The notes under the pieces: generated by a model
What the model saw: the letters and a program-made list of their open reading frames with translations, nothing else
The model's database searches: none
Told to the model about the DNA's origin: nothing
Program-made: the position numbers and the translations under genes
Part shown: positions 1-18,880 of the stretch, piece by piece
How positions within the stretch are numbered: position 1 is the stretch's first letter
Layout: every line of letters starts with the position of its first letter
Source of the DNA: a virus
Taxonomy: Duplodnaviria > Heunggongvirae > Uroviricota > Caudoviricetes
Direction: 5' to 3' (one strand)
IMG/VR virus record: IMGVR_UViG_2740892422_000003
Location: 1-18,880 of that record
DNA length: 18,880 bases

Positions 1-50
1 TTGGTGGAGCTGGCGGGAGTTGAACCCGCGTCCGAAATTCCTACATCCTC
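1..50 (-). repeat. Left att direct repeat: 50-nt copy of the 3' end of the tmRNA gene ssrA, antisense on the + strand (displaced partial copy)
   Basis: Bases 1-50 are identical to 18831-18880. The reverse complement reads GAGGATGTAGGAATTTCGGACGCGGGTTCAACTCCCGCCAGCTCCACCA, the T-arm and acceptor CCA end of the tRNA-like domain of tmRNA. Sequence from 51 onward is AT-rich island DNA, not ssrA body. Confidence 0.85.
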
Positions 51-129
51 TTACATAGTATGGGAAAACAAAGCATTACCATATAAATCAATGTGTTGAT
101 TGACACTGACTAACAGTGCTTAACAGTCG

Positions 130-1143: not shown

Positions 1144-1149
1144 TTTTCT

Positions 1150-2738: not shown

Positions 2739-2889
2739 GTTTGTAGTTCGCAACTGTTGACAAACGACAATTTTAAAAATAATCTCTGAATTGTTTCGAA
2801 TGTAGATATTGATAATTGTCGTTTGTAGATTATTAACAACTATTGTCACCAACGCTCATTAGTGACAAACGAATGAGGAATTTTGCCGT
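2739..2889. promoter_or_regulatory. Lysis-lysogeny switch region with repeated operator-like motifs and a rightward promoter
   Basis: Between divergent cI and the early operon. An 8-9 bp motif GTTTGTAG / GACAAACG occurs in both orientations at about 2739-2746, 2757-2767, 2817-2828 and 2864-2871. A TTGACA (2757-2762), 17-nt spacer, TAATCT (2780-2785) arrangement is a sigma70-like promoter pointing toward the early operon. Confidence 0.55.
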
Positions 2890-3078
2890 ATGCAAACTAA
2901 AGCTGCAACACATTCAGAAAGCAGGTGGGTACCTCTGAAAACGTTTTGCGACAGGGTTGAAATAAAACTGCGCACGGGACGTTACTGGGTACACACTGGC
3001 AAACTCAAAATCAAACCTAAAAGCAAACCGAAAGAACATGTGTTTGTAGATTGGCTTGCGTGGAACAGTGAAAAGTAA
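2890..3078 (+). CDS. Small basic DNA-binding protein, Cro/Apl/Cox-like (62 aa)
   Basis: First gene of the rightward early operon, divergent from cI. Small and basic (KLKIKPKSKPKEH). The call rests on synteny with 186 apl and P2 cox, not on recognised sequence similarity. Confidence 0.5.
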   Translation: MQTKAATHSESRWVPLKTFCDRVEIKLRTGRYWVHTGKLKIKPKSKPKEHVFVDWLAWNSEK

Positions 3079-3121
3079 TCATCACTTTTAGTGATTTTGA
3101 GATTGGGATGGAAGAAAAACA

Positions 3122-3625
3122 ATGTTTGATTACCAGACCTCTAAACATGCGCACTTTGATGCGGCTTGCCGAGCATTTGCAATTGAGCACAATCTTGAAG
3201 ATGTGGCCGCTGCCGTTGGTATGAGGCCGCAGATCCTGCGCAACAAACTGAACCCAGCACAACCGCACCGCCTGACCTGTGATGAGCTTTTGGCTATCAC
3301 GGATTACACCGAAGATGCGCGTTTGCTTGATGGAATGTTAGGTCAGATTAACTGCCTTCCATCCGTGCCGGTGAACAATGCCACAGAAGGCAACATGCAG
3401 TTGTGCGCACTGAGTGCCACAGCCTGTGTGGGCGCGATTGCTGGGGAAGCCGTATCAACTGGCCATATGACTGCCGCCCGCCGTACTCAAATTCTGGATC
3501 GTGCCCGCGATGCAATCCGTAGCTTATCCGTGCTGGCTTATACCGTTGAAAGCCGTATTCACTCTGCGCCTGTTCTGGCCGCTGCGGTGGATCTGGCCAC
3601 AACCAACGCCACCGGCCTGATGTGA
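3122..3625 (+). CDS. cII: CII-like phage regulatory protein (phage 186 CII family)
   Basis: 167 aa, beginning MFDYQTSKHAHFDAACRAFAIEHNLEDVAAAVGMRPQILRNKLNP, with a predicted HTH. Same position and size as 186 CII. Confidence 0.75.
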   Translation: MFDYQTSKHAHFDAACRAFAIEHNLEDVAAAVGMRPQILRNKLNPAQPHRLTCDELLAITDYTEDARLLDGMLGQINCLPSVPVNNATEGNMQLCALSATACVGAIAGEAVSTGHMTAARRTQILDRARDAIRSLSVLAYTVESRIHSAPVLAAAVDLATTNATGLM

Positions 3626-3634
3626 GGGAACACC

Positions 3635-3808
3635 ATGAAAGCGTTTGTCACTTACCTGAAAAAAGAATCACCAGACATGCAGTTGCCGAGTGGTTCAACG
3701 GGATGGATAGAACTTCCGAACGGTCAGCGCTGGAACCCTGGCCACATGTACAAATTCAATGGCCAGCAGCCGCGTCGCCCATGGTGGCGTCGTCTGATGG
3801 GGCTATAG
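3635..3808 (+). CDS. Small hypothetical early protein (57 aa), not in the ORF track
   Basis: ATG at 3635 is preceded by GAGGGAA about 7 nt upstream, immediately after the cII stop. Translation is MKAFVTYLKKESPDMQLPSGSTGWIELPNGQRWNPGHMYKFNGQQPRRPWWRRLMGL. The overlapping frame (track ORF 3622..) gives a W/P-rich sequence that looks like out-of-frame noise. Confidence 0.4.
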   Translation: MKAFVTYLKKESPDMQLPSGSTGWIELPNGQRWNPGHMYKFNGQQPRRPWWRRLMGL

Positions 3809-3816
3809 GGGGCGTT

Positions 3817-4245
3817 ATGGCGATTAGCCAGGAACAGCAAAAGCGCGGGTTGGAGCATTGTAAAAGAATGCGTCTTCAGATCAACCCAGCCTACAGCGAT
3901 GCGGGGGACTGGTGGGACAACTTGACACCAGAGTGGCGCGGCGTGGTGCTTCATGCTGCTGCTGTTACTTCAGGTGCCGGGGTATTTAAAGCCCACTTAA
4001 GCAAATGCTGCTGGCAGGAACTTTATGAACGTCTGGGATATCGGGACATGATTCAACTACGACGGGGTATTTCACGGGCGCGCTTAACGTTCGAAGGTTT
4101 CGGCAGTTTACGTGACAGCGATTTTTCAAAGCGCACCGCGAACCGCCCGATCAAAAAGGCACATCCAATTTATAGCAGTAGCGGGGTGCAGATGGTGATC
4201 GCGCCTCATATCGTCCATAAGTTCCAGCAACAGGGGAATCACTAA
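3817..4245 (+). CDS. Hypothetical early protein (142 aa)
   Basis: Internal ATG of the track ORF 3622..4245, preceded by a G-rich RBS-like run. Its stop overlaps the start of the next ORF (ATGA). The start is ambiguous; in-frame ATGs at 3703 and 3781 are alternatives. Confidence 0.5.
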   Translation: MAISQEQQKRGLEHCKRMRLQINPAYSDAGDWWDNLTPEWRGVVLHAAAVTSGAGVFKAHLSKCCWQELYERLGYRDMIQLRRGISRARLTFEGFGSLRDSDFSKRTANRPIKKAHPIYSSSGVQMVIAPHIVHKFQQQGNH

Positions 4246-4646
4246 TGACCATTATTTCCGTTGAGGGTAAATCGTTGGGGGCTGAACTGGCTGTGTGGGG
4301 TGTCCCGCATAATTACGCTGTAGCGTTTGCAGCGAAAAGCACCAGTAAGAATGGCCGCATCGCTTTGCATCCGTTCTTCTTCAATGACACCGAGCACATG
4401 ACGAATCCGCGTCACTGGCTGGCGATCAATGCCGCTTTCTGGTGTTGCGTGTATCGCGAAGCTGAAAGCAAAGAAGCCCAGATAGAAGCGCTGGCGGGGA
4501 TTCGTGCAATTTTCTATACAGCTGGGGCGCTGGGTGTTGGCGAGATAAAAGCGCTGATCCAGGAGTGGTGGCGGACAACCTATGAGCTTCACCTGATTCC
4601 GGCACCGAACTACTCAGCCGCTACAGTACAACCCACTTTTCACTAA
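4245..4646 (+). CDS. Hypothetical early protein (133 aa)
   Basis: ORF translationally coupled to the upstream gene. No family recognised. Confidence 0.6.
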   Translation: MTIISVEGKSLGAELAVWGVPHNYAVAFAAKSTSKNGRIALHPFFFNDTEHMTNPRHWLAINAAFWCCVYREAESKEAQIEALAGIRAIFYTAGALGVGEIKALIQEWWRTTYELHLIPAPNYSAATVQPTFH

Positions 4647-4713
4647 TTAACAGCCTGAATTTTTTGGCCACGGTTCAAGTGGCCGGGGATTCTTTTGCCT
4701 TAAGGAAACCAAA

Positions 4714-4947
4714 ATGCACATGACACGTCAGGATTTACCCGCAACAAAATCAGGCACCGACCTGCTGGCCATGCTCACCAAAGCCACGCAGGAAGGTAAA
4801 GCCGCAGCTGCTGATCTGTGTTCCACACGTCTGGATAAGCTGGCCACCCATGCAGCCAATGAAGGTTTAAGCGCAGCGGAAATCGTTGAGTTAATCCGCG
4901 AAGAAGCCGCAGCGATTTGCAGCAAAGGCGGTGCGGCATGGCAATAA
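4714..4947 (+). CDS. Hypothetical small protein (77 aa), Ala-rich
   Basis: ATG preceded by AAGGAAA. Its 3' end overlaps the dam start. Confidence 0.5.
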   Translation: MHMTRQDLPATKSGTDLLAMLTKATQEGKAAAADLCSTRLDKLATHAANEGLSAAEIVELIREEAAAICSKGGAAWQ

Positions 4948-5798
4948 AAACTCCGCTTAAATGGGTGGGCAGCAAAGCCCGCCTTATGCCTAAGCTGCGT
5001 CCGCACCTTCCTGAAGGTAAACGCCTGGTTGAACCGTTCGCAGGTTCCTGCGCCGTCATGATGAATACGGATTATGACGATTATCTGATCGCAGATGTGA
5101 ATCCTGATCTGGTTAATCTTTATAAGGCGATGGCGTATCACACTGATGTGCTGCTGAATGAGCTGGAGAGCCTGTTTACTGCCGGTTCGTTAGGTGATGA
5201 AGAAAGCCGTGCCGTTTTCTATTACGCCGTGCGTGATGCTTTCAATCTTTCTGGTGGTAAGGCCGGTTCTGAATCTGTTGAAAATGCTGCGCGTTTCCTG
5301 TACCTGAATCGCCACTGTTTCAATGGCCTGTGCCGGTATAACCGCCGAGGCCAGTTCAACGTCCCGTTCGGTAAGTACAAAAAGCCTTATTTCCCCGCTG
5401 ATGAAATCCGCGCTTTTGCTGAAAAAGCGAAACGCGCAACGTTCATTACTGCCCACTATTCAGAAACGCTCGATTTGGTTCGGGACGGGAATGACGTTGT
5501 TTACTGTGATCCACCTTATCTGACTGAAAGCGATAATTTCACCGCTTACTATGGGCTCGGTTTTTCGCACATGGATCAGGGGAGGCTGGCGCGTAAGTTG
5601 CGCCGTCTGGCCAGAAAAGGCGTGCCGGTTGTGGCCTCTAATGCCGATCTGGAAATGGTGCATTACCTGTACGCCGGATTTGAAGCCGTTCGCATTAATG
5701 CCCCGCGTAGTGTTGGTGCCGCAGCTGCAAGCCAGAAAGTTGCTGCAGAGTTAATTCTGAAGTCGCCGCTTGATTCTATAGCGATGGCCTGCGCATGA
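4938..5798 (+). CDS. dam: DNA adenine methyltransferase (Dam-like, GATC N6-adenine MTase family)
   Basis: Motif I LKWVGSK, HLPEGKRLVEPFAGSCAVMMNTDYDDYLIADVNPDLVNLY, FLYLNRHCFNGLCRYNRRGQFNVPFGKYKKPYFP and catalytic DPPY (VVYCDPPYL) align closely with E. coli Dam as I recall it. Start set at the internal ATG (MAIKTPLKW); the track start at 4917 is an alternative. Confidence 0.9.
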   Translation: MAIKTPLKWVGSKARLMPKLRPHLPEGKRLVEPFAGSCAVMMNTDYDDYLIADVNPDLVNLYKAMAYHTDVLLNELESLFTAGSLGDEESRAVFYYAVRDAFNLSGGKAGSESVENAARFLYLNRHCFNGLCRYNRRGQFNVPFGKYKKPYFPADEIRAFAEKAKRATFITAHYSETLDLVRDGNDVVYCDPPYLTESDNFTAYYGLGFSHMDQGRLARKLRRLARKGVPVVASNADLEMVHYLYAGFEAVRINAPRSVGAAAASQKVAAELILKSPLDSIAMACA

Positions 5799-7816
5799 CT
5801 CCTGTCGCAAATGGCCAACATCATGCCGTCGATACCTGGCGGCGTGAAACGTTCGCACCGGGTACGCCTACAGACGCCACGATCACCGAGCGCCGCCTGT
5901 GGGCGGTTAATCCGCAGGATTACGAATGGCGCTCACAGTACCTGCATGAGATACCCGACTGGTTAGCCGGGTATTTTGGCCGTCGTTACGAAAAGCTTTT
6001 TTCTGGCCGTGACGGGCGTCGCCGTGCCAATACATTCCTGCGCAAAACAATCGGTGAGAATGTATTGCCACGTCTGCGCAAAGTGGCTGCGCGTTACTCG
6101 CTGGCCGCTGATGCTGCTGATCTTCCTTTTGGTAAGTCGCTGGAGCGCTTGCCGTCACTAGACCGTCCTGATCTTAAAAAACTGGCTGGCCAGGTATCTG
6201 GTTGGATTTCCCAGTCACTTTATGACTTCACCGAACAGTTTGATTCCGGCACTGACGATGCCAGAGAGCTGCATCGCCGCACCCTGGAATCTTACCGCCA
6301 TCTTTGTGCCTGTTGCCTGATGCTGAATAACCAGCCGCCGTACTGGACTGAACATGAGGCCAATGAAGGTCAACTGGAAATGCGTAAGGCGGAATCCGGG
6401 ATACTGCGCATGATGGCGCCGGAATGGTGGTACCTGCGTCTTAAACGTGCGCGTGATACGAAGCGCGAGCACATGGCCATTGCGGTGGGACAGGTGCAAA
6501 AAGCGGCCAGCGCTTATGTATCCCGCAAAACACTGGGCGAATGGATAGACCAGAAAAAGCGGAATCTGGAGTTCTTTAAAAAGTTTGATCTGCTGAATGA
6601 TGAGGGGCTGCGCATTGCACTGGACAGCCTGGTGCACCGCAGCGTTGCAAATCCGGCGATCCGTCGATGTGAACTAATGGTAAGAATGCGAGGGTTTGAA
6701 GATATGGCCAATGAAGAAGGACTGGCCGGTGAGTTTTACACCATCACCGCGCCATCACGTTTCCACGCAGTGCACAGCAAAGGTGGCTTTGTATCGCAAT
6801 GGGATGGATGTACGCCGCAGGATACCCAGCGCTATTTATGCGGCATATGGGCAAAAGCACGCGCAGCGATCTCGCGTGCGGGTATTCATGTATTTGGGTT
6901 TCGGGTTGTTGAGCCTCACCATGACGGGACACCGCACTGGCATATGTTGCTTTTTATGCGTCCGCATGACGTGGACACGGTACGCGATATTCTTTGCTAT
7001 CACGCCAGAATTACCGATTCTGAAGAACTGCAATCTGAAAAGGCGCTGAAGGCGCGTTTTCATGTTGAAGCGATCGATCCCGCCAAAGGTTCGGCCACGG
7101 GCTACATCGCGAAATACATTTCAAAAAATATTGATGGTTTTGCGCTGGATGGTGAGCAGGACGAAGAAACCGGCGAAAACCTGCGTGATATGGCTAAGTC
7201 CGTTTCCGCGTGGGCTTCACGCTGGCGTATTCGCCAGTTTCAGCAGATTGGTGGTGCGCCGGTAACTGTCTGGCGTGAGCTGCGTCGGTTGCGGGATCAG
7301 GTGCTGACCGATCGCAGAATGGATGCGGTTCTGGCCGCTGCTGATGTCGGTGACTGGGCTGCATATACCCAGGCGCAGGGCGGTGCACTGGTTGCCCGCC
7401 GTGATCTGGTTGTTCGTCTGGCCTATGAAATTACGGAACAGGGCAACGAGTACGCAGAGGACGTACAGCGCGTACAGGGGGTTTATTCTCCTTTAGTTCC
7501 TGATTCAGAAGTTTGCACCCGTCTGGTTAAGTGGCAAAAGGTTGCGAAGTTGGCCGAAGCGCCAGCGGAGGCGGGGTTTTCTGGCGGCAACGCCGCCCCT
7601 TGGAGTTCTGTCAATAACTGTACGGAGGGGGGAGCCCGCAGACGGTTAAAACTGGAATTACGCAGTCGGGGTTTTGAGGGTTCCGATGAAGAAATAGCCA
7701 TTCTCCTGCGGGGTAGTGGTTTGAGATTCGGTCAAGGGGCGCTGATTTACCGTAATGGGCGGCTTAAAGAGACTCAAAACGAGCCATTACAGGAGCTGTG
7801 GCCGGGGTGGGTGTAG
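5795..7816 (+). CDS. Rolling-circle replication initiation protein (P2 gpA / 186 A-like)
   Basis: 673 aa. Contains an HUH-type motif (HHDGTPHWHMLLF) and a downstream tyrosine motif (GYIAKYISKN) typical of P2 A-family nickases. Sits after the early regulatory genes as in P2/186. Start overlaps the dam stop (ATGA). Confidence 0.88.
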   Translation: MTPVANGQHHAVDTWRRETFAPGTPTDATITERRLWAVNPQDYEWRSQYLHEIPDWLAGYFGRRYEKLFSGRDGRRRANTFLRKTIGENVLPRLRKVAARYSLAADAADLPFGKSLERLPSLDRPDLKKLAGQVSGWISQSLYDFTEQFDSGTDDARELHRRTLESYRHLCACCLMLNNQPPYWTEHEANEGQLEMRKAESGILRMMAPEWWYLRLKRARDTKREHMAIAVGQVQKAASAYVSRKTLGEWIDQKKRNLEFFKKFDLLNDEGLRIALDSLVHRSVANPAIRRCELMVRMRGFEDMANEEGLAGEFYTITAPSRFHAVHSKGGFVSQWDGCTPQDTQRYLCGIWAKARAAISRAGIHVFGFRVVEPHHDGTPHWHMLLFMRPHDVDTVRDILCYHARITDSEELQSEKALKARFHVEAIDPAKGSATGYIAKYISKNIDGFALDGEQDEETGENLRDMAKSVSAWASRWRIRQFQQIGGAPVTVWRELRRLRDQVLTDRRMDAVLAAADVGDWAAYTQAQGGALVARRDLVVRLAYEITEQGNEYAEDVQRVQGVYSPLVPDSEVCTRLVKWQKVAKLAEAPAEAGFSGGNAAPWSSVNNCTEGGARRRLKLELRSRGFEGSDEEIAILLRGSGLRFGQGALIYRNGRLKETQNEPLQELWPGWV

Positions 7817-7896
7817 TTGTGTAAGTATGTGAAAGGCATTCATTTGTCAGTAGATGGCAGGAAAAAGCACTTTCACATTTTGTGCTTAAATGTATA

Positions 7897-7912
7897 CTGT
7901 GTTTATATACAG
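7897..7912. promoter_or_regulatory. LexA (SOS) box, CTGT-N8-ACAG
   Basis: CTGTGTTTATATACAG is a perfect match to the CTGT-N8-ACAG LexA consensus with an AT-rich centre. It overlaps candidate -10 elements (TATACT about 7893-7898, TATATA about 7904-7909). Confidence 0.7.
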
Positions 7913-7931
7913 TTATTCTGTTTTTGGGAGG

Positions 7932-8150
7932 ATGCTTGTGCAGGATTTGTTTTTGGAAACTATCGCATTGCAGCGGATTGCGTTGTTTACAAGGCTTATA
8001 GCTAAAAGTAATTGCACCGGCTGTGAGAAAGACATAGCACTTGCCTGGCTGAGCGAACTGACTTCAGATCTGGAAAGTAAGCTCGATGAGTATGAGAACA
8101 AAACCCCCAGTAATGGGGGCATTTCAGGCGGCGGGAGTCGCTTTCAGTAG
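7932..8150 (+). CDS. Small LexA-controlled ORF (72 aa), positional analogue of a Tum-like SOS antirepressor
   Basis: ATG at 7932 immediately follows GGGAGG and lies about 20 nt downstream of the LexA box. Translation begins MLVQDLFLETIALQRIALFTRLIAKSNCTGCEKD. Its 3' end overlaps the convergent ogr-like gene by about 27 nt. No sequence similarity to Tum recognised. Confidence 0.35.
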   Translation: MLVQDLFLETIALQRIALFTRLIAKSNCTGCEKDIALAWLSELTSDLESKLDEYENKTPSNGGISGGGSRFQ

Positions 8151-8447
8151 GTCTAATGCCATCTGGCGCTGATCGGGTGAAAGTGCATTCAGTATTTTTT
8201 GCACCATCGCATCACCCGTTTTAGCGCTGGGGCTGAGAGTGTGGGAGAACGTCAGATTCATAACAAACGTATGGCCACACTCAACATCTGAACAGGCGCA
8301 GTAAATATCCGCAATTTGCCGGTGCTTCCTGTTCGTTTTACGAATAACAGCCTTTGAGCCGCATTCCGGGCATTCGATTTTCAGAACTCGCATATTCCAT
8401 GCTCCAGCTGTTAAATGATGCCTGGATTTTAGCCTGTTTCGCCTCAT
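8124..8447 (-). CDS. ogr: Ogr/Delta-family zinc-finger late transcription activator
   Basis: Contains CPECGSKAVIRKTNRKHRQIADIYCACSDVECGHTF, matching the Cys4 pattern of P2 Ogr / 186 B (CPxC ... YxQCxNxxCxxTF). The track start overlaps the portal stop (ATGA); an internal Met (MRVLKIECPECG) directly before the zinc finger is an alternative start. Confidence 0.8.
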   Translation of the reverse strand: MRRNRLKSRHHLTAGAWNMRVLKIECPECGSKAVIRKTNRKHRQIADIYCACSDVECGHTFVMNLTFSHTLSPSAKTGDAMVQKILNALSPDQRQMALDLLKATPAA

Positions 8448-9505
8448 GCCGCACCCTTATCCGTTGATTCTGTGTAACTTAAATCAAAGTTAAGGTGTAG
8501 CCTTTCCGGTATTTCGGGATCGTTGTTAACGGCCAGCATGAAACGGCGCTGGATGGGGGCTATTTCGCTTTTCTTGTAAATGCGTTCAGCCTTTTCAACA
8601 TCCCCCAGTCCGGCAGTGTTCTGCGGGACAATACCGGCGAGGCCAGCAGGGAAACGGTGCGCGTTCAGAATGTCCTGGGCGCTGATGTTTTTGATGTTGG
8701 CAAATTCATCCTTCGCGGAAATATCCCCCATTTCAATGAATTTGATTGCGTCACCGTCTCCACCAGGAATGTTTACAAGGATGGTGGAGAAGTTACCGAT
8801 CCCTTTGCTGTCACGCAGCTGCTGTTCAATTTCTTCCTCCATTTCGTCCGTCATGCTGGGATCGCGGGTATAAAGAATACCGCCAGTGTGCGCACCGTTG
8901 TGGTAATAGCGGCGTCGGAAAATGACCGCTTCACTGTTTAGTAACGCGGAATGCACGCCGCCGATGTAGTCCGGCAGTCCGTAGATATGCTGTTGCGGGT
9001 CATACATTTTGATGAAGATAATATCTTCTTCTGGCCATACCTGCGGTTCTCCTTCCTGTAACACCACGTAGTCACCGGGCTTATCCTGGGCGTTATCTCT
9101 GACTTTGCGGCGGCGAATATACAGACCGGGCAAGGGTTCAAGTGCGATCACGTCGCCCCAGCCGTTACGAATTTTGGCAATTGCAATATCCCCAAAGGTT
9201 ATATAGTCAAACGCTGCCGCTTCCAGCTGGTCGTGAATAAGCCCGCCCCCCTGGTAGTCTGAAACAATCATGTTTTTGCGGGCGTGAATGATGCCGCCGT
9301 GCTGACCGTTAAGATTAATCAGCTGTGCGAGTGCCAGCCGGTCAATCGGCTGGGTGAAGTGATCGGCGGCATTGTCGTACCAGATATCACGATAATCTGT
9401 GCCGGTAGTCAGAACCGGTTCAGGTTTGCCGAATGTGATAATGCTCATCTTTTTTGATTTGTCGCCGCGCTGGTCGCGCTTAACAAAGCGTTTCTTTTTA
9501 CTCAT
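8444..9505 (-). CDS. Capsid portal protein (P2 gpQ-like)
   Basis: 353 aa, same size and position as P2 Q (downstream of and overlapping the terminase gene, divergent from scaffold/capsid genes). Basic N-terminus (MSKKKRFVKRDQRGDKSKK). Confidence 0.8.
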   Translation of the reverse strand: MSKKKRFVKRDQRGDKSKKMSIITFGKPEPVLTTGTDYRDIWYDNAADHFTQPIDRLALAQLINLNGQHGGIIHARKNMIVSDYQGGGLIHDQLEAAAFDYITFGDIAIAKIRNGWGDVIALEPLPGLYIRRRKVRDNAQDKPGDYVVLQEGEPQVWPEEDIIFIKMYDPQQHIYGLPDYIGGVHSALLNSEAVIFRRRYYHNGAHTGGILYTRDPSMTDEMEEEIEQQLRDSKGIGNFSTILVNIPGGDGDAIKFIEMGDISAKDEFANIKNISAQDILNAHRFPAGLAGIVPQNTAGLGDVEKAERIYKKSEIAPIQRRFMLAVNNDPEIPERLHLNFDLSYTESTDKGAA

Positions 9506-11277
9506 GCTGCCTCTTTCCTTACACCCCAGCGGGATTTAGGTTTGTTTTCATAGTTAAGGGGTTCGTTATGCAGACCGTGGGTAATCGCCCAGAACGCCTC
9601 CGCGTGGCCAGTATCCTGGCTGCGGTCAGCGACAAACGTCATGGCGTTGCCGCTTTGTGTGGTGGTTCGGCGCACAGACATAAAGCTGGCCGCGATCTCT
9701 TTCAGGTTTTTATCCCACTCAATACGCTGGCTTTCCACCACGTCCACCGCTTTCAGTACCAGTTGATTTTTAGTGTTCAGGTCGTAACGAATAGGGACGG
9801 CCACGCGCATGGCAAAATGCTGAATGTTGTCAAAAACACCCTGGCCAATGCCGGTAACGTCCACCCCCAGATAAGTGAAGTTGTATTTTTTGAACAACTG
9901 CTCGATCTGTTTTGCCTGATACCGGAAGTTCATGCCTTTCCAGTAAATCACCTTCAGAACGCGGAACTTCTCCACGGCGAGCATCGGTGGAGCGATGATG
10001 ACAAAACAGGACAAATCACCGCTGCGAGCCGGGTCAAAGCCACCCCATACAGGTCTGTCACCGAATGGCCGCGCTGCATCAGGATTGTGATCCTGCCAGG
10101 TGTCGATTTCAACGCCGCAGGCTTCCAGATCGGAAAAGCTGAAAACGGAATCTTTGCTGTCAACGAACACGCACATATAGAGCATGTTAAAAGTGGCGTC
10201 GTTGTAGCGGTTGCGAAGTTTCTCGATGTTCGCCAGGTTGAAACCGCCCGCAATGGCATCTTCCATCGTAATGACGTAGCGCCATTGCCCATCCGGGCAG
10301 AGTCGCCCACCGTCACGCATTTCGTTAAAGGAAGGAAACTTAATGGCCGCACGTTTTTTACTGCCCTGTTTCCACTCATCGCCCGTCCAGAACGGGTACG
10401 CCTGGTGCGTTTTTGCCGATGGCGTTGAAAAATAGGTGGTACGCCACTTGTCATGCGTGGCCATTGCGCTGGCCACTTCGTTAAGTTTTGCAAAGTTTGG
10501 TACCCAGAAATATTCGTCACAGTACAGGTGGCCGCTGTAGGACTGGGCGGTGTTTTTGTTGGTGGAGAGAAAACGCAGTTCTGCGCCGTTGCTTAAGCGG
10601 ATCGGGTTGCCGGTCAGCGTAATACCGAAATACTGCTCTGCAATATTCACGATGTAAGACCGGAACACTTCAGCCTGAGCCTTTGACGCTGACAGAAAGA
10701 TTTGCGGATCGCCGGTCATCACCGCGTTTTCAAACGCTTCAAACGCAAAATACCAGGTTGCACCGATCTGGCGGCTTTTCAGGATGTTCCTGACAAGCTG
10801 GCCAATGTTATTGCGCAGGTGTTTCTGATATTCAAAAAGATGTTCCTCAGCCCATGCGTCAAAGTCCTCCTGCGTCAGCGAGGTAATATCGTTTTTCTTG
10901 TACTTCCGTTTGCTGCGCGGTTCGTCGTCATTGTTGTCCCGTGCAGTTGCTTGCCCGGAACTCTGACCGCTGGCCATTTTCTCTTTATGTTTATTACTCT
11001 GCGCACGCAGTTTGGTGGCATGAGTAATGAGCATGTCCATTTCTTTCAGGTCGAGATCGGTTTTGTTATCGCGGCTGGCCAGCAGCTGGTAACGGCGTTC
11101 AATCGCTTCCTCTGTGCTTTCAAAACTGAGCAAATCCGCCCAGCTGTATTTCTCCGCCCAGTAGTAAACGATCCGCGCATTCGGCAGATTTAATTCAGAT
11201 GCGATTTCCTTTGGCGTATAGCGGCGCAGATAAAGTGCGCGAACAACGCCTTTTAATTCTTCAGAGTATTTAGCCAT
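9502..11277 (-). CDS. Terminase large (ATPase) subunit (P2 gpP-like)
   Basis: 591 aa (P2 P is about 590 aa). Divergent from the scaffold gene across a short control region and followed by the portal gene with a 4-nt overlap, as in the P2 head module. Confidence 0.82.
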   Translation of the reverse strand: MAKYSEELKGVVRALYLRRYTPKEIASELNLPNARIVYYWAEKYSWADLLSFESTEEAIERRYQLLASRDNKTDLDLKEMDMLITHATKLRAQSNKHKEKMASGQSSGQATARDNNDDEPRSKRKYKKNDITSLTQEDFDAWAEEHLFEYQKHLRNNIGQLVRNILKSRQIGATWYFAFEAFENAVMTGDPQIFLSASKAQAEVFRSYIVNIAEQYFGITLTGNPIRLSNGAELRFLSTNKNTAQSYSGHLYCDEYFWVPNFAKLNEVASAMATHDKWRTTYFSTPSAKTHQAYPFWTGDEWKQGSKKRAAIKFPSFNEMRDGGRLCPDGQWRYVITMEDAIAGGFNLANIEKLRNRYNDATFNMLYMCVFVDSKDSVFSFSDLEACGVEIDTWQDHNPDAARPFGDRPVWGGFDPARSGDLSCFVIIAPPMLAVEKFRVLKVIYWKGMNFRYQAKQIEQLFKKYNFTYLGVDVTGIGQGVFDNIQHFAMRVAVPIRYDLNTKNQLVLKAVDVVESQRIEWDKNLKEIAASFMSVRRTTTQSGNAMTFVADRSQDTGHAEAFWAITHGLHNEPLNYENKPKSRWGVRKEAA

Positions 11278-11437
11278 GCGGATAATTATGCCGTGGCTGT
11301 GATGAAAAAACGGTGGTGTTAATTCGTGTCCGTTCGGTAAAGCGTTATAACCGAACTGTTCAGAATAAAGCGTAATGCAGTGGCGGTTTTATTTGGCAAT
11401 AATTGATTTGCAGCGTCAGGGAGTGGAACAGGGGGAT
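11278..11437. promoter_or_regulatory. Divergent late-promoter region between terminase (leftward) and scaffold (rightward) genes, containing a dyad symmetry element
   Basis: Inverted repeat GTTCGGT-N11-ACCGAAC at about 11332-11356, embedded in TGTCCGTTCGG...CCGAACTGTTCAG. It lies between two divergently starting late operons, where P2-type late promoters carry the activator-binding dyad. Confidence 0.5.
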
Positions 11438-12241
11438 ATGTCACATTTAAAAACTGACTGGCTGTGTGTTGCTACTGAAGGGGATACCGTTGACGGCAGG
11501 GTAATTAAACGGCAGTGGATCATTGATATGGGGGAAACCTATGACTATAGCCACTATGTCGCTTTAATCTGGCCAGAACATGAGGATGATTGCGGAAATT
11601 TTGGTGAAGTGCTGGAAGCCACCTGGAATGATGGTGAAGATGGACTGGCACGGTTATATGTCAGCCTTTGCCCGAATATGCGTCTGATTTTCGCAAATCA
11701 TGAAGATCAGCTTTTGTTCTTCTCCATTGAGCCGGAAGAAAACTGGCGCGGTAGCGGGCGTACTTACCTGAAAGGGCTGGCGGTAACAGATACACCTGCC
11801 AGCGTTGGCACCACACGGCTGCGCTTTAGTAGTCGGCGCAATAAATTAACAAAGCAGGGATATTACAGCTGTGTAATTTCCCATGACGGAAAAATTAAAC
11901 AGGAAGCAAGAATGAAGAACTGGCAGAAACTGTTTGGTCTTAAACCAAAGTTTGAAGATGAAACGCCGCAGGATAATCCTGCCCCGGATGAAGATAAATT
12001 ACAGGCGCTTGCCAATGTGGTTAACGATCTGGAAGCGCGTGTGGCGAAAATTGAAACTCAACTGAATGACGTTCAGGGTGATGTTGACACAATCGCTGAA
12101 GTGGTGGATACGCAGGAATTTGCGGCAATTCGCGATAATGCAAAAGAAATCGTAACCCGCTTTAACGATTTGGGTAATAAAAACCCCCGTACACCGGGGC
12201 GTACTATTAAAGATAAAGCCGGGAAATTTAATTTCCTGTAA
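11438..12241 (+). CDS. Capsid scaffolding protein (P2 gpO-like)
   Basis: Internal ATG preceded by AGGGGGA. N-terminal VATEGDTVDGRVIKRQWIIDMGETYD resembles the P2 O N-terminus (GVEGDTCDGRVI...) as I recall it, and YLKGLAVTDTPASVGTTRLRF resembles the conserved gpO protease-like segment. The track ORF begins 63 nt upstream at 11375. Confidence 0.8.
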   Translation: MSHLKTDWLCVATEGDTVDGRVIKRQWIIDMGETYDYSHYVALIWPEHEDDCGNFGEVLEATWNDGEDGLARLYVSLCPNMRLIFANHEDQLLFFSIEPEENWRGSGRTYLKGLAVTDTPASVGTTRLRFSSRRNKLTKQGYYSCVISHDGKIKQEARMKNWQKLFGLKPKFEDETPQDNPAPDEDKLQALANVVNDLEARVAKIETQLNDVQGDVDTIAEVVDTQEFAAIRDNAKEIVTRFNDLGNKNPRTPGRTIKDKAGKFNFL

Positions 12242-12303
12242 TTCGCTTTATTGCTGATTAGTCCAGAACATATTTTTAAATCGCTTAATTGCGAGGGAGT
12301 TTT

Positions 12304-13326
12304 ATGCACCTTAATAATCGTGCGCGGGATTTACTGGATAAATATTCGGCGGGGATGGCGCAGCAGTTTGGTGCGCGTGATACCAGTCGATATTTTTCCC
12401 TGAATGACCCGCAGGAAAATGCGCTGCGTCTTGCGTTGCTGGAATCCGTCGAGTTCCTGAACATGATCACCTGTCTGGATGTTGACCAGCTGAGTGGCCA
12501 GGTGATCTCTGTCGGTTCTTCCGTGCTGCATACCGGCCGCAGCGAAAATGGCCGTTTTATTCGTCAGGTAGGCGTTGACGGTAATGACTATTCCCTGGTT
12601 GAAACAGACAGCTGCGCCGCACTGCGCTGGGATCTGCTTTCTGTCTGGGCAAACGCCGGTAAGGACGAAAACGAATTTTACAACCTGGTACAGGCATTCA
12701 CCACGCAGGCTTTTGCGCTGGACATGTTGCGCATTGGTTTCAATGGTAAGAGCCGGGCGAAAACCACTGATCCGGTAGCAAACCCGAACGGTGAAGATGT
12801 GAACATCGGCTGGCATGAGCGTATGAAAACGCTGCTGGGCGGCAATCAGATTATGACGGATGCCGTGGTGCTTGATGAGGCCGGGGATTACAAGTCACTG
12901 GATGCAATGGCGTCCGATCTGATTAACGCCAAAATCCCGGCGCAGTTCCGCAATGACCCGCGTCTGGTTGTCCTGGTCGGTGCCGATCTGGTCGCTGCTG
13001 AACAGTACCGACTGTATCAGGCGGCAGACCGTCCGACTGAAAAAATTGCTGCGCAGATGCTGGGAAGTACCATTGCTGGCCGTCAGGCCATTATCCCGCC
13101 GTTTATGCCGGGTAAACGCATGGTGGTTACGCCGCTTTCTAACCTGCACATCTACACCCAGCGCAATACCCGTATGCGTAAGGCGGAGTTTGTTGAAGAT
13201 CGTAAGCAGTTCGAAAACAAATACCTGCGCAATGAAGGTTACGCGGTGGAAGTGCCGGAGCTGTATGCGGCCATTGATGAATCCGCAGTGACGATCGGCA
13301 AAGTCTCCGAACCGGTGGAGGGCTGA
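12304..13326 (+). CDS. Major capsid protein (P2 gpN-like)
   Basis: About 340 aa from the ATG preceded by GAGGGAG. Segments FNGKSRAKTTDPVANPNGEDVNIGWHE and GDYKSLDAMASDLIN resemble recalled P2 N sequence. Directly follows the scaffold gene. Confidence 0.85.
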   Translation: MHLNNRARDLLDKYSAGMAQQFGARDTSRYFSLNDPQENALRLALLESVEFLNMITCLDVDQLSGQVISVGSSVLHTGRSENGRFIRQVGVDGNDYSLVETDSCAALRWDLLSVWANAGKDENEFYNLVQAFTTQAFALDMLRIGFNGKSRAKTTDPVANPNGEDVNIGWHERMKTLLGGNQIMTDAVVLDEAGDYKSLDAMASDLINAKIPAQFRNDPRLVVLVGADLVAAEQYRLYQAADRPTEKIAAQMLGSTIAGRQAIIPPFMPGKRMVVTPLSNLHIYTQRNTRMRKAEFVEDRKQFENKYLRNEGYAVEVPELYAAIDESAVTIGKVSEPVEG

Positions 13327-13329
13327 TAA

Positions 13330-15222
13330 ATGGCACTTTCCCCCGCGCAGCGTCACAGCCAGCGCATTGCGATGGAACAAAAGCTGAAACGCAGCCAGGC
13401 ACTGGAAACCACGGAAAGTATGCACCTGCTGATCAGGGCGTTGGAAACAGATGTGGAACACGTTCGAAGTCTGCCTACCATCGCCGATCGCGTCGAGTAT
13501 AAACGCGATGTGCTGTTAATGATGAAACCAGTAAAACGCCTTTACCTTTCAACGGATGAAGTTCACCTGGTGGATGCCAGCCTGGTACTGGAGCTGAACA
13601 GCTGCGGCCGGGGCTTCATCACCGCAGAGACAACAACCGATTACACCGGAAAACTGGTGCGGCTGGATGTGGGGTATACCGATCTGCTTTTGCGCTGGTT
13701 TACGGGGTATGTGGAGCGATCACAGCCCGCAGAAAACGGTTTTCAGCGTCTGTTCATTCGTGAGCTGGCAGGTGTGTTTGAAAGGATGTGGCCGTGTTCG
13801 TTTCAACACCCGACTTTGCGAGAAATTGCGGGCTGGCTGGAAGAAAACAGCGGGATCACAGTCAGTGTGCCTGATGCACAGTACAGCGATACCCCCATCC
13901 CACATTTTACCCATAACGGTACTGGTTATCAGTTGCTGAACAATCTGGGCAGGGCGTTCAGTATCCAGGATTACATCTGGTACCAGTTGCCTGATGGTTC
14001 GCTTTACGTCGGCGGCGCAGAAAAATCATTGTTTGCCGGTCGTCCCGTAGAAATCCCGTCAGAGTTCAGCCAGGGGGCTGCTGGCGGTAACTCTGTGACA
14101 TTACCAGTGATCCAGACTATGCGGCCAGGGGTGGAGATGAACGGTGAACGCGTGACTAAAGTTCACCTGACGAATGACACGATGGCGATCACATGGACGC
14201 CGAGAAACCGCGCAACGGGTAAACCTTTGCAGAAAACACCGGCGCAACGGCAGATTGAAAGCCATTACCCGGAACTGGCATCCGGGCTTCATTTGCCAAA
14301 GATGGCCAGAGTCGTGGCGCATTCAGAGCCAGTAAAAAGCGGTAACTTTGCCGATCCCTTCCGGCCACGTTACGCAGTGGACGTGCAGCTGCTTGACGCA
14401 GACGGAAACCCGGACAATCAGACGCCTGTTTACTCAGCGGTGCCGCTGCCGGTGCCAATGGCCGGGAATGATTCAGGTATGTTTCAGTTCCCGCCAGAAG
14501 GGACGCTGGTTGAGGTTGCATTCACGGGAGGCAGACCGGATAAACCCTTTATCAGGCAGACGCTGCCGGATGGTACCAGCCTGCCGGACGTTAAACCCGG
14601 TGAGCAATTGCAGCAGCAGCGGGAAGAAGTTTCCCAGCGGGTGACTCAGGCAGGAGACTGGGTAAGACAGACCGATCAGACCATCAGTGAAACATCGATG
14701 GTGCGAACGGTAAAGGCCGATACGGAACAGCGCGAACTGGTCAGCCGTGAAACCACGGTGAAAGCCACGGATAAAACTACGGTACTGGGAACCGCCACAC
14801 TGCTGGCCGGAGCTATTCAGCAGGTAAGCGCCGGTGATTATAGCCAGGCGGTGAAAGGTAACAGACTGGCCAGTATTGAAGGAAACGAAGAAACGGACAT
14901 AGCAGGACAGCAGTCCACTAAAGTGGGCGGTGCTGTAGCCGTGGAGGTTGGCGAAAGCCTGACAGAGAAAATTGCCGCACTGCGTAAATCAGTGGCCGCT
15001 GGCGGTCAGCAGGTCATGGGGGCAACTGTCCATATTGGCAGTGAGAGTATCAACGCCCTGACCATGATGCTGGATACCATTGATTTACTGGCAGATCTGG
15101 CGCAGCAATGCGCGAGCCATTCGCACCCCACCGTTGGGACGCCAACCAATGCCGCCGCGTTCACACAGACGGCGACGAAAGCCGGGCAGACCCGGAGCAA
15201 GTACCAGGGGATCATTGCTTAA
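13330..15222 (+). CDS. Chimeric 630-aa protein: small-terminase-like N-terminus (gpM-like) joined to a baseplate central-spike-like C-terminus (gpV/gp5/VgrG-like OB fold plus His-containing apex)
   Basis: Starts 4 nt after the capsid gene stop, with GGAGGG upstream. The N-terminus MALSPAQRHSQRIAMEQ resembles the start of P2 gpM (MTSPAQRH..., from memory). The C-terminal half has an OB-fold spike signature (FQFPPEGTLVEVAFTGGRPDKPFI), a repetitive T/V/K-rich segment (TVKADTEQRELVSRETTVKATDKTTVLGTA) and an HxH element near the end (CASHSHPTVGTP). Confidence 0.6.
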   Translation: MALSPAQRHSQRIAMEQKLKRSQALETTESMHLLIRALETDVEHVRSLPTIADRVEYKRDVLLMMKPVKRLYLSTDEVHLVDASLVLELNSCGRGFITAETTTDYTGKLVRLDVGYTDLLLRWFTGYVERSQPAENGFQRLFIRELAGVFERMWPCSFQHPTLREIAGWLEENSGITVSVPDAQYSDTPIPHFTHNGTGYQLLNNLGRAFSIQDYIWYQLPDGSLYVGGAEKSLFAGRPVEIPSEFSQGAAGGNSVTLPVIQTMRPGVEMNGERVTKVHLTNDTMAITWTPRNRATGKPLQKTPAQRQIESHYPELASGLHLPKMARVVAHSEPVKSGNFADPFRPRYAVDVQLLDADGNPDNQTPVYSAVPLPVPMAGNDSGMFQFPPEGTLVEVAFTGGRPDKPFIRQTLPDGTSLPDVKPGEQLQQQREEVSQRVTQAGDWVRQTDQTISETSMVRTVKADTEQRELVSRETTVKATDKTTVLGTATLLAGAIQQVSAGDYSQAVKGNRLASIEGNEETDIAGQQSTKVGGAVAVEVGESLTEKIAALRKSVAAGGQQVMGATVHIGSESINALTMMLDTIDLLADLAQQCASHSHPTVGTPTNAAAFTQTATKAGQTRSKYQGIIA

Positions 15223-15319
15223 TGCTGGTATTCATGTGATAAGTTGAGACGTTCTGGACTTCCTGATGGCTGTAGCTCTGTTGTTGGGTAGCCCAGAAAA
15301 ATTCGAAATAAAATGGGTA

Positions 15320-15874
15320 TCAAGTAGTGGTAATTGTATGGCTTTTGCGGGTTATATAAACGCTATTGGCGGGTACGTCTCTGTTAACGAATGACATTGC
15401 GCCAATTGTCACGTTATCACCAATGGTTAGATCATCACCGATGATGCACGAATTTGCACCAATCTCCACATTGTCTCCGATCCTGATGGCTTTGATTCCC
15501 TCAACCGTTTTTAATCCAATTGTTGTGTTTTGTCGGATACGCACATTCTTACCAATCACAGCCTGGGGGCAAATGACTATTCCAACGAAATGATAAATTT
15601 TGAATTTTTCCCCTATCTGTGCCCCCAACCCAATATCAGTATTGTATTTTGAAACAAGTCTCCTATGGATTCTTCGCGCCCATTTCACTCTTGCTCTCCC
15701 ACCCTGGCAGTAAAGGCAATTCGCTATTCTCCACCAACACATGAACCTGTATCCGGGCTGTCTCCAGCAACGTAGTATGATTCTTCTCCATGAGAATTTT
15801 TTACTGTTGCTCAGTATGTCCGCGCACAATAACTGCTTCATTTCCTCGTAGTGAGATATTTTGCTGCTGCTCAT
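15320..15874 (-). CDS. Hexapeptide-repeat (left-handed beta-helix) acetyltransferase, WcaB/CysE-like sugar O-acetyltransferase family
   Basis: Tandem hexapeptide repeats (IGKNVRIRQNTTIGLKTVEGIKAIRIGDNVEIGANSCIIGDDLTIGDNVTIGAMSFV) and an N-terminal region similar in pattern to WcaB-type acetyltransferases. Lower GC than the phage core. Start is ambiguous (ATG at 15874 or 15841; the track ORF begins with TTG at 15889). Confidence 0.8.
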   Translation of the reverse strand: MSSSKISHYEEMKQLLCADILSNSKKFSWRRIILRCWRQPGYRFMCWWRIANCLYCQGGRARVKWARRIHRRLVSKYNTDIGLGAQIGEKFKIYHFVGIVICPQAVIGKNVRIRQNTTIGLKTVEGIKAIRIGDNVEIGANSCIIGDDLTIGDNVTIGAMSFVNRDVPANSVYITRKSHTITTT

Positions 15875-16661
15875 AAATTGTCCGTCCAAATAATCCTGAC
15901 GGTTATCGTAACATGGGAATGGTCTGATTTTCTGCTAACAGCACAACACTAGGCTATGTGGTTCGGTCTGATAGTGGGCTTCTTCATCCAAAATGATTTA
16001 GTTGGGTTACCAACACAAATCTATTTCTCACATCGTCATAGGCGTCACCAGACGCATTTTAAACCCTTTAGTAACAAACCCTACCCCGCGCACCAAGTGT
16101 AAAAGATCCGAAGCGTGGCGTGGCGCTGGTAGGGTCATATGATGGCGAAATAAATCTTTCGCAGACAAAAACGGCGCTACACCGCACCCGCCTGCGGTTT
16201 CTGGATCTGGAAATTTTTTCAGTTTTATTTTTCTACAAACCAGACCGCCAGACCGCACCATTACTGGCGGCTTTGCAGATAATCAGAACTGAAATGATTG
16301 AAAAGAATTTCAGTGTTTTTCACTTTCATGGATCTGTGGAGGATCGAATACAAAATGTAACCAGCAGAAAAATAAGGGGAAATAATTTTTTTGTGAGTGG
16401 GAAGGATCGTTTTTGTTTTCTGGTTGTTTTCGTCGTAGAAAAGCCGAGGCCAGATTTAGCAAGGCATAGGGACAATTAGAAGGTTCATAGAAAACTGAAA
16501 AAACTGCATGCATGTCGTGGAAACTAGCGAGCTAACAATTGCATCGAAATCTAATTTTAATCTTGGAACTTGAGAAAACTTTTGTCAAATTAGTTGTCGC
16601 TTTTTAGTTGTGGATATCCTTCCGATGTTTACTTGGCAGAGCTTACATTAAGGCATTCGAT

Positions 16662-17780
16662 ATGACTGAAAAATTCACCGCAATTTTGTTAGATACGAGT
16701 ATCTACGATCAGTACGGATTAAAGCTTGAGAAAGGACTGCTGGGTAAGCTTTCCCAGTTCAGCAGAACCCCGACAACGTTTTTGATACCGGATGTAATTT
16801 ACAATGAAGTTAAAAATCATCTTGAAAGAAAAATCAAGACATCACGTGGCTCCCTTGAGAAAGCTTTCGAAGAAGCTGGCGATCATCTTTTTTTTGATGG
16901 AAGCGAACTAAATGATGCAAGAAAAACATTGATTGAAAGCAGAGAAGTTGAAGGATTAGGAAAGAGCAGATTAGACAGATTTGTTGGCGTAACAGATGCG
17001 AAGGTTCTAACTACAGGGGATTATGTTTCGGTACCTGAACTCCTTGAACGATACTTCTCTTCTGAAGCTCCTTTCGCAGATACAGGTAAGAAAAAAAATG
17101 AGTTTCCCGATGCAATAACATTAATGGCCGTCCAAGCCTGGGCTAAAGAGAATGGTGAAAATGTTCTTGCTGTAGCAAGAGATGACGACTGGCAGAGATT
17201 TTGTATTGATGCTGAGAATTTGCACTATGAACCTGACTTATCAAACGCTTTAGCACACTTCAATGAAGAAACCGCACCTTATGAACTAATTGATAACTTA
17301 CAAAAAGCACTTGCTGAAGGACAAGCCGGTAAATTCTTGCATGATGTTGCTGTACACCTTGAGTCAACCTTTGAAGGATTTGCACCAGAACAAGAGGCAG
17401 ATTCATATTTATACTGGGAGGCTGACGGATGCTCAGGTGGATTTGAAGATTTTGAGTTTACAGATAACCACTTCACTGTCATCGACAAGGATGAAAACTG
17501 GGTTGTTATAGAAGCATTTGCAGACATTTCACTTTACGCAGAAGGTGATTTCTCCCTATCGGTTTACGATTCATTCGACAAAGACCATGCTTACATGGGG
17601 TCAATTACCAAGCGAGCCGAGGAAACATATACATCCAGAATACTTATCACAATCTCCGGAGACTTATCAGGTTCTATAGATGATTTGACCGTTGACGATG
17701 TGGAAGTGATCGAGCGTCCAACGTCGATGGATTTTGGGGAGCTTGAATTAGAGTATGAGCCTGACGAGCAAGACTTGTAA
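16662..17780 (+). CDS. PIN-like domain protein with a strongly acidic C-terminal region (372 aa)
   Basis: Start at the ATG (MTEKFTAILLDTSIYDQYG) preceded by TAAGG. The N-terminus has a PIN-like acidic signature (ILLDTSIY; later EFPDAITLMAV, ARDDDW). The C-terminal roughly 150 aa are very D/E-rich (EADGCSGGFEDFEFTDNHF...DDLTVDDVEVIERPTSMDFGELELEYEPDEQDL). Low GC. Confidence 0.65.
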   Translation: MTEKFTAILLDTSIYDQYGLKLEKGLLGKLSQFSRTPTTFLIPDVIYNEVKNHLERKIKTSRGSLEKAFEEAGDHLFFDGSELNDARKTLIESREVEGLGKSRLDRFVGVTDAKVLTTGDYVSVPELLERYFSSEAPFADTGKKKNEFPDAITLMAVQAWAKENGENVLAVARDDDWQRFCIDAENLHYEPDLSNALAHFNEETAPYELIDNLQKALAEGQAGKFLHDVAVHLESTFEGFAPEQEADSYLYWEADGCSGGFEDFEFTDNHFTVIDKDENWVVIEAFADISLYAEGDFSLSVYDSFDKDHAYMGSITKRAEETYTSRILITISGDLSGSIDDLTVDDVEVIERPTSMDFGELELEYEPDEQDL

Positions 17781-17884
17781 CAACTATGATTAGGCACTAT
17801 CGCTGTCGCCATTTTGTCGCCAACTCGATTGCAGTTTCGTTGTAACTAATTGAATTTAATCTTTTTTATTTTCAGGCAACAAAA

Positions 17885-17915
17885 AACCCATCATCTTTAG
17901 AGCATGATGGGTTTA
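17885..17915. terminator. Bidirectional rho-independent terminator between convergent cargo genes
   Basis: AAAAAA, then stem CCCATCAT, a 9-nt loop, stem ATGATGGG, then TTTA, at about 17881-17915 between the PIN-like gene (ends 17780) and the convergent HEPN-like gene (ends 17924). Confidence 0.6.
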
Positions 17916-17923
17916 TAACTTGC

Positions 17924-18733
17924 TTATTCTTTTTTTTCATCCCACGATTCAAGAATAAACATAGTTAGTGTATGTGCAGCATTGATGGCTAATCGTGCGT
18001 GTCGGGGCTTGAGATTGTAAATTTTTCGTCCTGCGCCATGAGCTGAACTCGCATGAGTTCTTAGCGAGCCGATACCATCGGTGAGAGAATATAAGCCGCT
18101 CAAAATGCGTTTTAAGTCCTCATCTTCTACCGCTTTAGTGTCAAGACCTAAATGTTCACGAACGGTCTTCCACAAGCCCTGCAAATCCTGCTTCGCAGGA
18201 ATCGGTAGGTTTTCATCTGCGATAAAAATTTTAAATGTTGATTCTAATATATTACAGGCTGCTGATACTGCTTCTCTTGGGTCAGTATGCAAGTTTTCTA
18301 AAGCTCTTGCGAATTCCATTTCTACTGCTGGAGTATTACGTTTCTGGATAGCTTCTTTCAAGGAAAGGGATGCTAGTGATGCTCCATCAGTAATGTAACC
18401 GCCAGTCACATAGTTCAGCCCATAACGACCAAGTAGTTCCGGCATTTTTTTAACAAACTCGACTTTCTTTTTTTCCCACTCATAGTATGGATTGGCGGGT
18501 AACTCTGACTCCATATAGGTTTCGATTAAGCGACCAAGTAAAACTAATGGTTCATCAGATTCTTTATTAATACGCCTTAACCATTCGAGAGCTTTAACGT
18601 GCTTAGATCCTTCGGGTGGTTCCCCTGGCGCATCAGCATAGGCAAACAAACTATCCAAACTAGCATGGGTTTCAGTGCTAGCAACGAAGTCAGCTACAAC
18701 AGATATTACAGGTTGAGGTATTGGCCGTCCCAT
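17924..18733 (-). CDS. HEPN-like / abortive-infection (Abi_C-like) protein (269 aa)
   Basis: The C-terminal segment GSLRTHASSAHGAGRK fits the HEPN R-x(4-6)-H motif found in Abi_C-type domains, followed by NAAHTLTMFIL. Low GC. Lies next to the right att repeat. Confidence 0.6.
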   Translation of the reverse strand: MGRPIPQPVISVVADFVASTETHASLDSLFAYADAPGEPPEGSKHVKALEWLRRINKESDEPLVLLGRLIETYMESELPANPYYEWEKKKVEFVKKMPELLGRYGLNYVTGGYITDGASLASLSLKEAIQKRNTPAVEMEFARALENLHTDPREAVSAACNILESTFKIFIADENLPIPAKQDLQGLWKTVREHLGLDTKAVEDEDLKRILSGLYSLTDGIGSLRTHASSAHGAGRKIYNLKPRHARLAINAAHTLTMFILESWDEKKE

Positions 18734-18830
18734 ATCTACTCCATCAGCGGGTCAATTTTGAACTTAGTGGACGCAAAGTGGACATTGCATAAAAAAAGGG
18801 ACTACGTTTTCACGTAACCCCTTGTTTTAA

Positions 18831-18880
18831 TTGGTGGAGCTGGCGGGAGTTGAACCCGCGTCCGAAATTCCTACATCCTC
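18831..18880 (-). repeat. ssrA: Right att direct repeat: 3' end of ssrA (tmRNA), probably the end of the intact gene whose body lies beyond the window
   Basis: Identical to bases 1-50. The reverse complement is the tmRNA 3' tRNA-like end with CCA. For a minus-strand ssrA the gene body would lie at coordinates above 18880. Confidence 0.85.

Follow-up and report, generated by a model that had tools for sequence, protein, structure and literature searches.

The 18,880-nucleotide stretch analysed here (positions 1 to 18,880 of the viral record IMGVR_UViG_2740892422_000003, Caudoviricetes, referred to below as the window) carries near its right-hand end a gene for a 269-residue protein of the Abi_C (AbiJ-like) HEPN family. 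By analogy with characterised relatives, this gene is probably a single-gene anti-phage defence of the abortive-infection type, an accessory cargo of a P2-family (186/Fels-2-like) prophage in ssrA, whose product would be a latent ribonuclease (RNase) activated on infection. A first-pass annotation had described the open reading frame (ORF), on the minus strand, as a stand-alone HEPN/Abi_C-like candidate abortive-infection gene next to an attachment site, and the ORF was found exactly as described (Table 1). The gene, its domain membership, the conservation of its motif, the modelled HEPN fold, its stand-alone status and its location on mobile elements were established in the present analysis. 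The gene is of an ordinary, already annotated kind, and its place among the prophage cargo is of a known type. The family is already known and this exact protein is already correctly labelled in public databases, so that public annotation is unaffected.

Family membership and conservation of the predicted catalytic motif

The Pfam profile Abi_C (PF14355) matched residues 187-262 with an E-value of 8.4e-22 and a score of 77.5 bits (gathering score 24), covering profile positions 3-83 of 83. The PADLOC profile of AbiJ was aligned over its positions 170-278 of 281 with residues 156-265 (E-value 9.3e-17). This match was confined to the C-terminal 109 positions of the profile and left residues 1-155 uncovered; a match over most of the profile, N-terminus included, as for a full-length Lactococcus lactis-type AbiJ as modelled in PADLOC, was not obtained. 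Additionally, a PHROG of unknown function matched residues 125-268, and no NCBIfam model matched the protein.

The sequence LRTHASSAHG (residues 224-233) had been read in the first-pass annotation as the R-x(4-6)-H catalytic motif of HEPN domains. The motif was present and its Arg and His were conserved, but the pattern proved uninformative by itself: it occurred three times in the protein and at least once in 71% of shuffled versions, and was rejected as stand-alone evidence for being no better than chance. The assignment was therefore made because of the profile match and the conservation of residues, and not because of the motif by itself.

A search of 5.8 billion proteins returned 1740 homologues, which share the same start methionine. 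PF14355 was present in all of the best 120, and those bearing a name were called "abortive infection family protein". NCBI holds an identical protein under this name, labelled Escherichia coli (draft assemblies), and near-identical proteins occur on more than 1000 Salmonella enterica contigs; the misnomer "HrpA helicase" is found in some older records. When 30 homologues were aligned, down to 60% identity, residues R225, T226, H227, A228, S229, A231, H232 and G233 were invariant. Furthermore, when 1.84 billion cluster representatives (clustered at 50% identity) were searched exhaustively with HMMER, 2485 relatives were detected, 174 of them with an E-value of 1e-30 or below. Among the best 150 representatives, 34-66% identical to the protein, R225 was kept in 137 of 141 and H232 in 134 of 142, which bore out the conservation of the motif pair; E140, R143 and E164 were also at least 90% conserved. 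These results indicated that membership of the Abi_C (AbiJ-like) HEPN family is close to certain.

A second basic and histidine-containing stretch, P-R244-H-A-R247-L-A...H254 (residues 244-254, about 17972-18004), was observed after the catalytic motif. R244, H245 and R247 were kept in 85-89% of the distant representatives, and RNA binding or a contribution as the second half of the active site may be considered as candidate roles.

The comparison with a homologue 87% identical in sequence gave proportions of changed sites of 0.079 (pN) and 0.74 (pS), a pattern indicative of a real, constrained gene under strong purifying selection. Dozens of assemblies contain the intact ORF in identical form (99 blocks of the collection), including every one of the 24 contigs that were read. 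At megablast sensitivity, the gene was detected in none of 5,426 complete E. coli genomes.

The C-terminal domain was modelled with the four to five helices of a HEPN fold. A sequence-profile search for a solved structure of a relative yielded none, the matches being to designed repeat proteins on a short helix only. The protein carries the R225/H232 pair, and in SadR, an Abi_C protein of Staphylococcus aureus, R225, N226 and H232, at the same residue numbers, are experimentally essential (PMC13590631). By analogy with SadR, the protein is most likely a HEPN ribonuclease.

A self-contained gene on mobile elements

The neighbourhoods of the gene and its relatives were compared at 22 loci from E. 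coli and Salmonella, other Enterobacteriaceae, Pectobacterium, Acinetobacter and Vibrio, and no gene was conserved beside Abi_C across them. In other assemblies, the identical protein is encoded directly after smpB-ssrA. The next gene is PIN_12 in some loci and an unrelated one of 350 residues in another, and P2-like tail genes come thereafter. The 87%-identical homologue, at ssrA or in other islands, is followed by a 224-residue gene. A 77%-identical copy was found in Escherichia phage ESSI2_ev040 (Peduoviridae), in the order repressor, integrase, Abi_C, acetyltransferase, which is the order given by circularising the window. Further afield, the Pectobacterium homologue is likewise found at this end of a P2-like prophage, which is inserted elsewhere in the chromosome; that of Acinetobacter baumannii belongs to an island and has a VgrG gene of type VI secretion nearby, and that of Vibrio vulnificus lies in an integrase-flanked island. 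Relatives were also detected on 195 plasmids, 115 of them full-length. Hence, the gene is a self-contained unit travelling on mobile elements, and the earlier description of it as stand-alone was upheld, since the neighbours differ between loci with an identical or related protein.

These loci bear on the idea that the protein is the toxin of a toxin-antitoxin module with an overlooked antitoxin, either a small protein or an RNA, as in AbiV (RNA antitoxin) or HEPN-MNT, with prophage stabilisation as its main role. A partner gene or antitoxin was rejected on the grounds that no gene is conserved beside Abi_C, no tandem repeats able to encode an RNA antitoxin were found within 2.7 kb of the gene, and no MNT gene is present in the window. 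Moreover, the 97 bp upstream are occupied by the ssrA terminator and the attachment arm, and SadR functions from a single gene (PMC13590631). A toxin-antitoxin module is therefore improbable.

A two-gene system was also considered, in which Abi_C would act jointly with the adjacent nuclease, a PIN_12-domain protein encoded convergently at 16608-17780 on the plus strand (Pfam E-value 2.9e-32; ATG at 16662 as the probable true start). The two genes lie next to each other, belong to the AT-rich cargo and encode predicted RNases, and they co-occur in several loci (L002, L004 and L005). Nevertheless, convergent genes cannot form an operon, the identical Abi_C occurs without PIN_12 in locus L003, as do close homologues, and a P2-like prophage of E. 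coli LR-51 has PIN_12 at its end unaccompanied by Abi_C. PIN_12 was rejected as a partner because each gene is found without the other, and joint action of the two is very improbable. The PIN_12 gene, for whose product no PADLOC or PHROG match was obtained, was regarded as a separate candidate nuclease cargo gene.

The prophage and the position of the gene

The last 50 nucleotides of the window are an exact copy of the first 50 and match the 3' end of the transfer-messenger RNA (tmRNA) gene ssrA (Rfam RF00023, 53.4 bits, model positions 325-374). Therefore, the whole 18.9-kb window was taken as one integrated element bounded by attachment (att) repeats. PHROG and Pfam scans of its genes identified the element as a prophage of the P2 family (186/Fels-2 type), integrated in ssrA. 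The features of the gene and of the prophage are collected in Table 1.

Table 1. Features of the Abi_C gene, its signals and the surrounding prophage in the window
Feature	Position	Strand	Basis or remark
Abi_C/HEPN gene, complete, 269 aa, ATG start	17924-18733	-	ORF list; stop codon included
N-terminal domain, aa 1-118	18380-18733	-	five helices and a beta-hairpin (modelled), without known sequence family
C-terminal HEPN domain, about aa 134-268	17930-18334	-	Pfam Abi_C match lies within, aa 187-262
Predicted catalytic motif R225-T-H-A-S-S-A-H232 (R-x6-H)	18038-18061	-	codons read from sequence
Intrinsic terminator, hairpin and U-run, 3' of Abi_C, between the convergent Abi_C and PIN_12 genes	17877-17914	-	RNA fold
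Shine-Dalgarno GGAG, 5 nt before ATG	18739-18742	-	read from sequence
ssrA terminator, directly upstream of Abi_C, same strand	18796-18823	-	terminator scan: 12-pair stem and T-run
att repeat, ssrA side, tmRNA 3' end	18831-18880	-	50-nt exact direct repeat; partner at 1-50
Integrase	1150-2163	-	
CI repressor	2163-2852	-	
CII	3122-3625	+	
DNA methyltransferase	4917-5798	+	
gpA nickase	5795-7816	+	
Ogr	8124-8447	-	
Portal	8444-9505	-	
Large terminase	9502-11277	-	
Scaffold	11375-12241	+	
Capsid	12289-13326	+	

The start of the Abi_C gene is separated from the ssrA-side repeat by 97 bp, and a survey of P2-like prophages described minor hotspots for defence genes adjacent to att (PMC13586616), with which this location fits. 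Just 3' of the stop codon, a hairpin followed by UUUUUUGUUG was found; its folding energy was -19.3 kcal/mol (z = -4.9), and none of 200 shuffled sequences folded as well. The proximity to att and the terminator of its own, both pointed out in the first-pass annotation, were thereby substantiated. A simple terminator scan overlooked this hairpin and reported the ssrA terminator only. In the interval that separates the Abi_C start codon from the ssrA terminator, GTCCAC was noticed twice on the minus strand at about 18758-18780, the two copies being 11 nt apart; the pair could represent arm-binding sites for the integrase in the att region, or else an operator.

The prophage is defective. A 630-residue ORF (13330-15222, plus strand) joins the first 63 residues of the small terminase to a 567-residue tail protein with gp5/V-like segments, which in intact relatives comes after the tail-fibre genes. 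This fusion marks an internal deletion by which the genes for lysis and tail were lost. In assembly L004, a prophage of this type shows a different deletion.

Four cargo genes lie past the 630-residue ORF, encoding a hexapeptide acetyltransferase, a 119-residue protein, PIN_12 and Abi_C. The guanine-plus-cytosine content is 42% for Abi_C (33% at third codon positions, GC3) and 41% for PIN_12 (GC3 35%), compared with 51-55% for the structural genes (GC3 about 57-60%). Both genes are thus much richer in AT than the structural genes, a composition to be expected of acquired cargo.

The N-terminal domain

Residues 1-118 were conserved in the alignment of 30 homologues to the same degree as the HEPN domain. 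No match of this region to a Pfam family (19 family members were scanned) or to a sequence of the PDB was obtained, even at E-values up to 10, and its classification as AbiJ_NTD3/4/5 or as any other Pfam family was rejected for the lack of a relevant match at this threshold. The domain, when modelled alone, was predicted with high confidence (pLDDT 93.4, pTM 0.86) as five helices and a beta-hairpin.

The model was compared with known folds, with scores of 5.6 for the death domain of UNC5H2, 5.5 for those of MyD88 and FADD, 5.2 for the bacterial death-like domain 8ss1, about 4.1-5.2 for CARD, DED and PYD domains, and 4.4 for the bacterial CARD 9frr. It is conceivable, if unlikely, that the 118-residue domain is an unrecognised bacterial death-fold (DD/CARD-like) module, through whose homotypic contacts the HEPN RNase would be driven into higher-order assemblies upon infection. 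If this were true, a widespread Abi_C branch would work by death-domain-style polymerisation, like the adaptors of animal innate immunity and the bacterial CARD/gasdermin systems.

Extensions of about 90 to 250 residues at the N-terminus were found in about a dozen of the 150 representatives. In relative P0142, AbiJ_NTD3 stands ahead of the entire 269-residue module; the extensions of five scanned representatives had no Pfam match, and that of a sixth gave a match to HSP70, in the C-terminal part of that protein. Therefore, the domain of residues 1-118 can also be a middle domain.

Proposed function

The context in which an anti-phage role is proposed is that of prophage, plasmid and island cargo. 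We infer expression, RNase activity, trigger and phenotype as follows. In the lysogen, the Abi_C protein would be made but remain latent. Infection by another phage would supply the trigger, which by the AbiJ/SadR analogy may be a phage single-strand annealing protein. The N-terminal domain would then sense the trigger or drive assembly, bringing two HEPN motifs together, and the enzyme, with R225/H232 as its putative catalytic pair, would cut single-stranded RNA. Translation would stop and the infection would be aborted.

Several observations weigh against this proposal. A consensus promoter scan of the approximately 60 bp from the ssrA terminator to the start codon gave no convincing sigma-70 promoter; expression of the gene was therefore assumed. 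The structure model has low confidence at residues 228-236, which comprise most of the catalytic motif, H232 included. Only the C-terminal domain is shared with the characterised relatives, so far as the AbiJ profile allows this to be tested, and the function of the RTHxxxAHG subfamily is suggested by its relatives only. Finally, the prophage is defective, so the gene could be a relic.

This last point belongs to the alternative that the gene is a decaying or non-defence passenger, that is, either a remnant, no longer active, in a dead prophage, or a housekeeping or phage-regulatory RNase acting, for example, on tmRNA, beside whose gene it lies. The lack of lysis and tail genes and the constant position after ssrA in the Salmonella and E. 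coli loci would agree with it. Nevertheless, the ORF is intact and shared without change by those many assemblies, and decay is made less likely by the purifying selection seen among homologues. The link to ssrA is explained by the phage att site, since homologues are located elsewhere in Pectobacterium, Acinetobacter, Vibrio and on plasmids. A passenger of this kind has a low probability, and abortive-infection-type defence was retained as the probable function. The gene would then be one more case of a prophage carrying a ready-made antiviral gene beside its attachment site.

Other cargo and candidate cargo in the window

An ORF of 337 residues (130-1143, minus strand), very AT-rich (30% GC), lies between the att repeat and the integrase. 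Its N-terminus has hydrophobic segments resembling membrane helices, its sole match was a PHROG of unknown function, and no Pfam or PADLOC match was obtained. The integrase-att spot was described as a minor P2 hotspot in the survey mentioned above (PMC13586616), and the ORF is possibly one more cargo or defence gene at this site.

Inside the 119-residue ORF (16120-16479), a 244-bp stretch (16148-16391) was 80-88% identical in 52 complete E. coli genomes, where it is mostly unannotated. In the one locus inspected, that of E. coli 1919D3, it has P2-like tail genes on one side and a serine acetyltransferase on the other. Either a small gene missed by annotation or a non-coding element that is conserved could account for this stretch.

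The hexapeptide-repeat acetyltransferase (15320-15889, minus strand) belongs to the same cargo region as Abi_C. A "serine acetyltransferase" adjoins the Abi_C homologue of phage ESSI2_ev040, and one is also found in a P2-like prophage of E. coli. The gene in the window may be a moron for the modification of O-antigen or of another target.

Comparison with known systems

The closest parallel is SadR of S. aureus, a protein of 266 residues with an Abi_C domain that cleaves single-stranded RNA as well as total RNA, but not DNA or double-stranded RNA (PMC13590631). SadR reduced the plating of several phages 10- to 10,000-fold and lowered plasmid transformation, and each of the substitutions R225A, N226A and H232A abolished all of its activities (PMC13590631). 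Like the present protein (269 residues), it is encoded by a single gene on or beside mobile elements, has its Abi_C domain at the C-terminus and shows R-polar-x5-H at the same residue numbers (R225, N/T226, H232). The two differ in the motif itself, RNEYGDAH in SadR and RTHASSAH here, and in context, SadR being found in a Gram-positive host beside rlmH/SCCmec and the present gene in a P2-like prophage. No protein with the RNEYG motif was present among the 270 retrieved homologues (the 120 closest and the 150 best cluster representatives). The absence of a recognised N-terminal Pfam domain may be compared with the "no NTD" class of Kondo et al. (2026), in which 2,257 of 2,815 Abi_C proteins were placed; in the same study, PADLOC put no Abi_C protein in a known defence system (PMC13590631).

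AbiJ (Abi-859) of L. lactis is the protein on which Pfam Abi_C was founded, as was the AbiJ HEPN family described by Anantharaman et al. (2013; PMC3710099). It also consists of a single gene product of about 280 residues with a C-terminal HEPN domain. Unlike the present gene, it is plasmid-borne in a Gram-positive host, and the N-terminal 155 residues of the present protein match neither the AbiJ profile nor Pfam AbiJ_NTD3/4/5. For AbiJ proteins, it was predicted that an N-terminal sensor restrains the C-terminal HEPN toxin (PMC3710099). Escape mutations from SadR and from AbiJ map to the phage single-strand annealing protein (PMC13590631; PMC13064643). The large RTHxxxAHG branch, with 174 clusters (50% identity, E-value of 1e-30 or below) from Enterobacteriaceae, Acinetobacter, Vibrio and plasmids, bears on whether the RNase mechanism of SadR and the link of SadR and AbiJ to annealing proteins extend to Gram-negative bacteria.

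Two systems of Gram-negative bacteria were also compared. Taranis, a cassette of the Vibrio cholerae superintegron with an Abi_C domain, confers protection against phages (bioRxiv 10.1101/2024.07.02.601686). Both Taranis and the present protein are single Abi_C-domain proteins of gamma-proteobacteria, and anti-phage activity has been demonstrated for Taranis; its N-terminus is reportedly distantly AbiJ_NTD5-like, whereas the present protein has no such match, and it is an integron cassette and not prophage cargo. HepS, from the Salmonella prophage Gifsy-1, is a solo, latent HEPN protein in which a phage tail-tip protein triggers the cutting of tRNA (PMC13043305). It belongs to another HEPN family and size class (motif R100-H105), not to Abi_C, and is carried by a lambdoid and not by a P2-like prophage.
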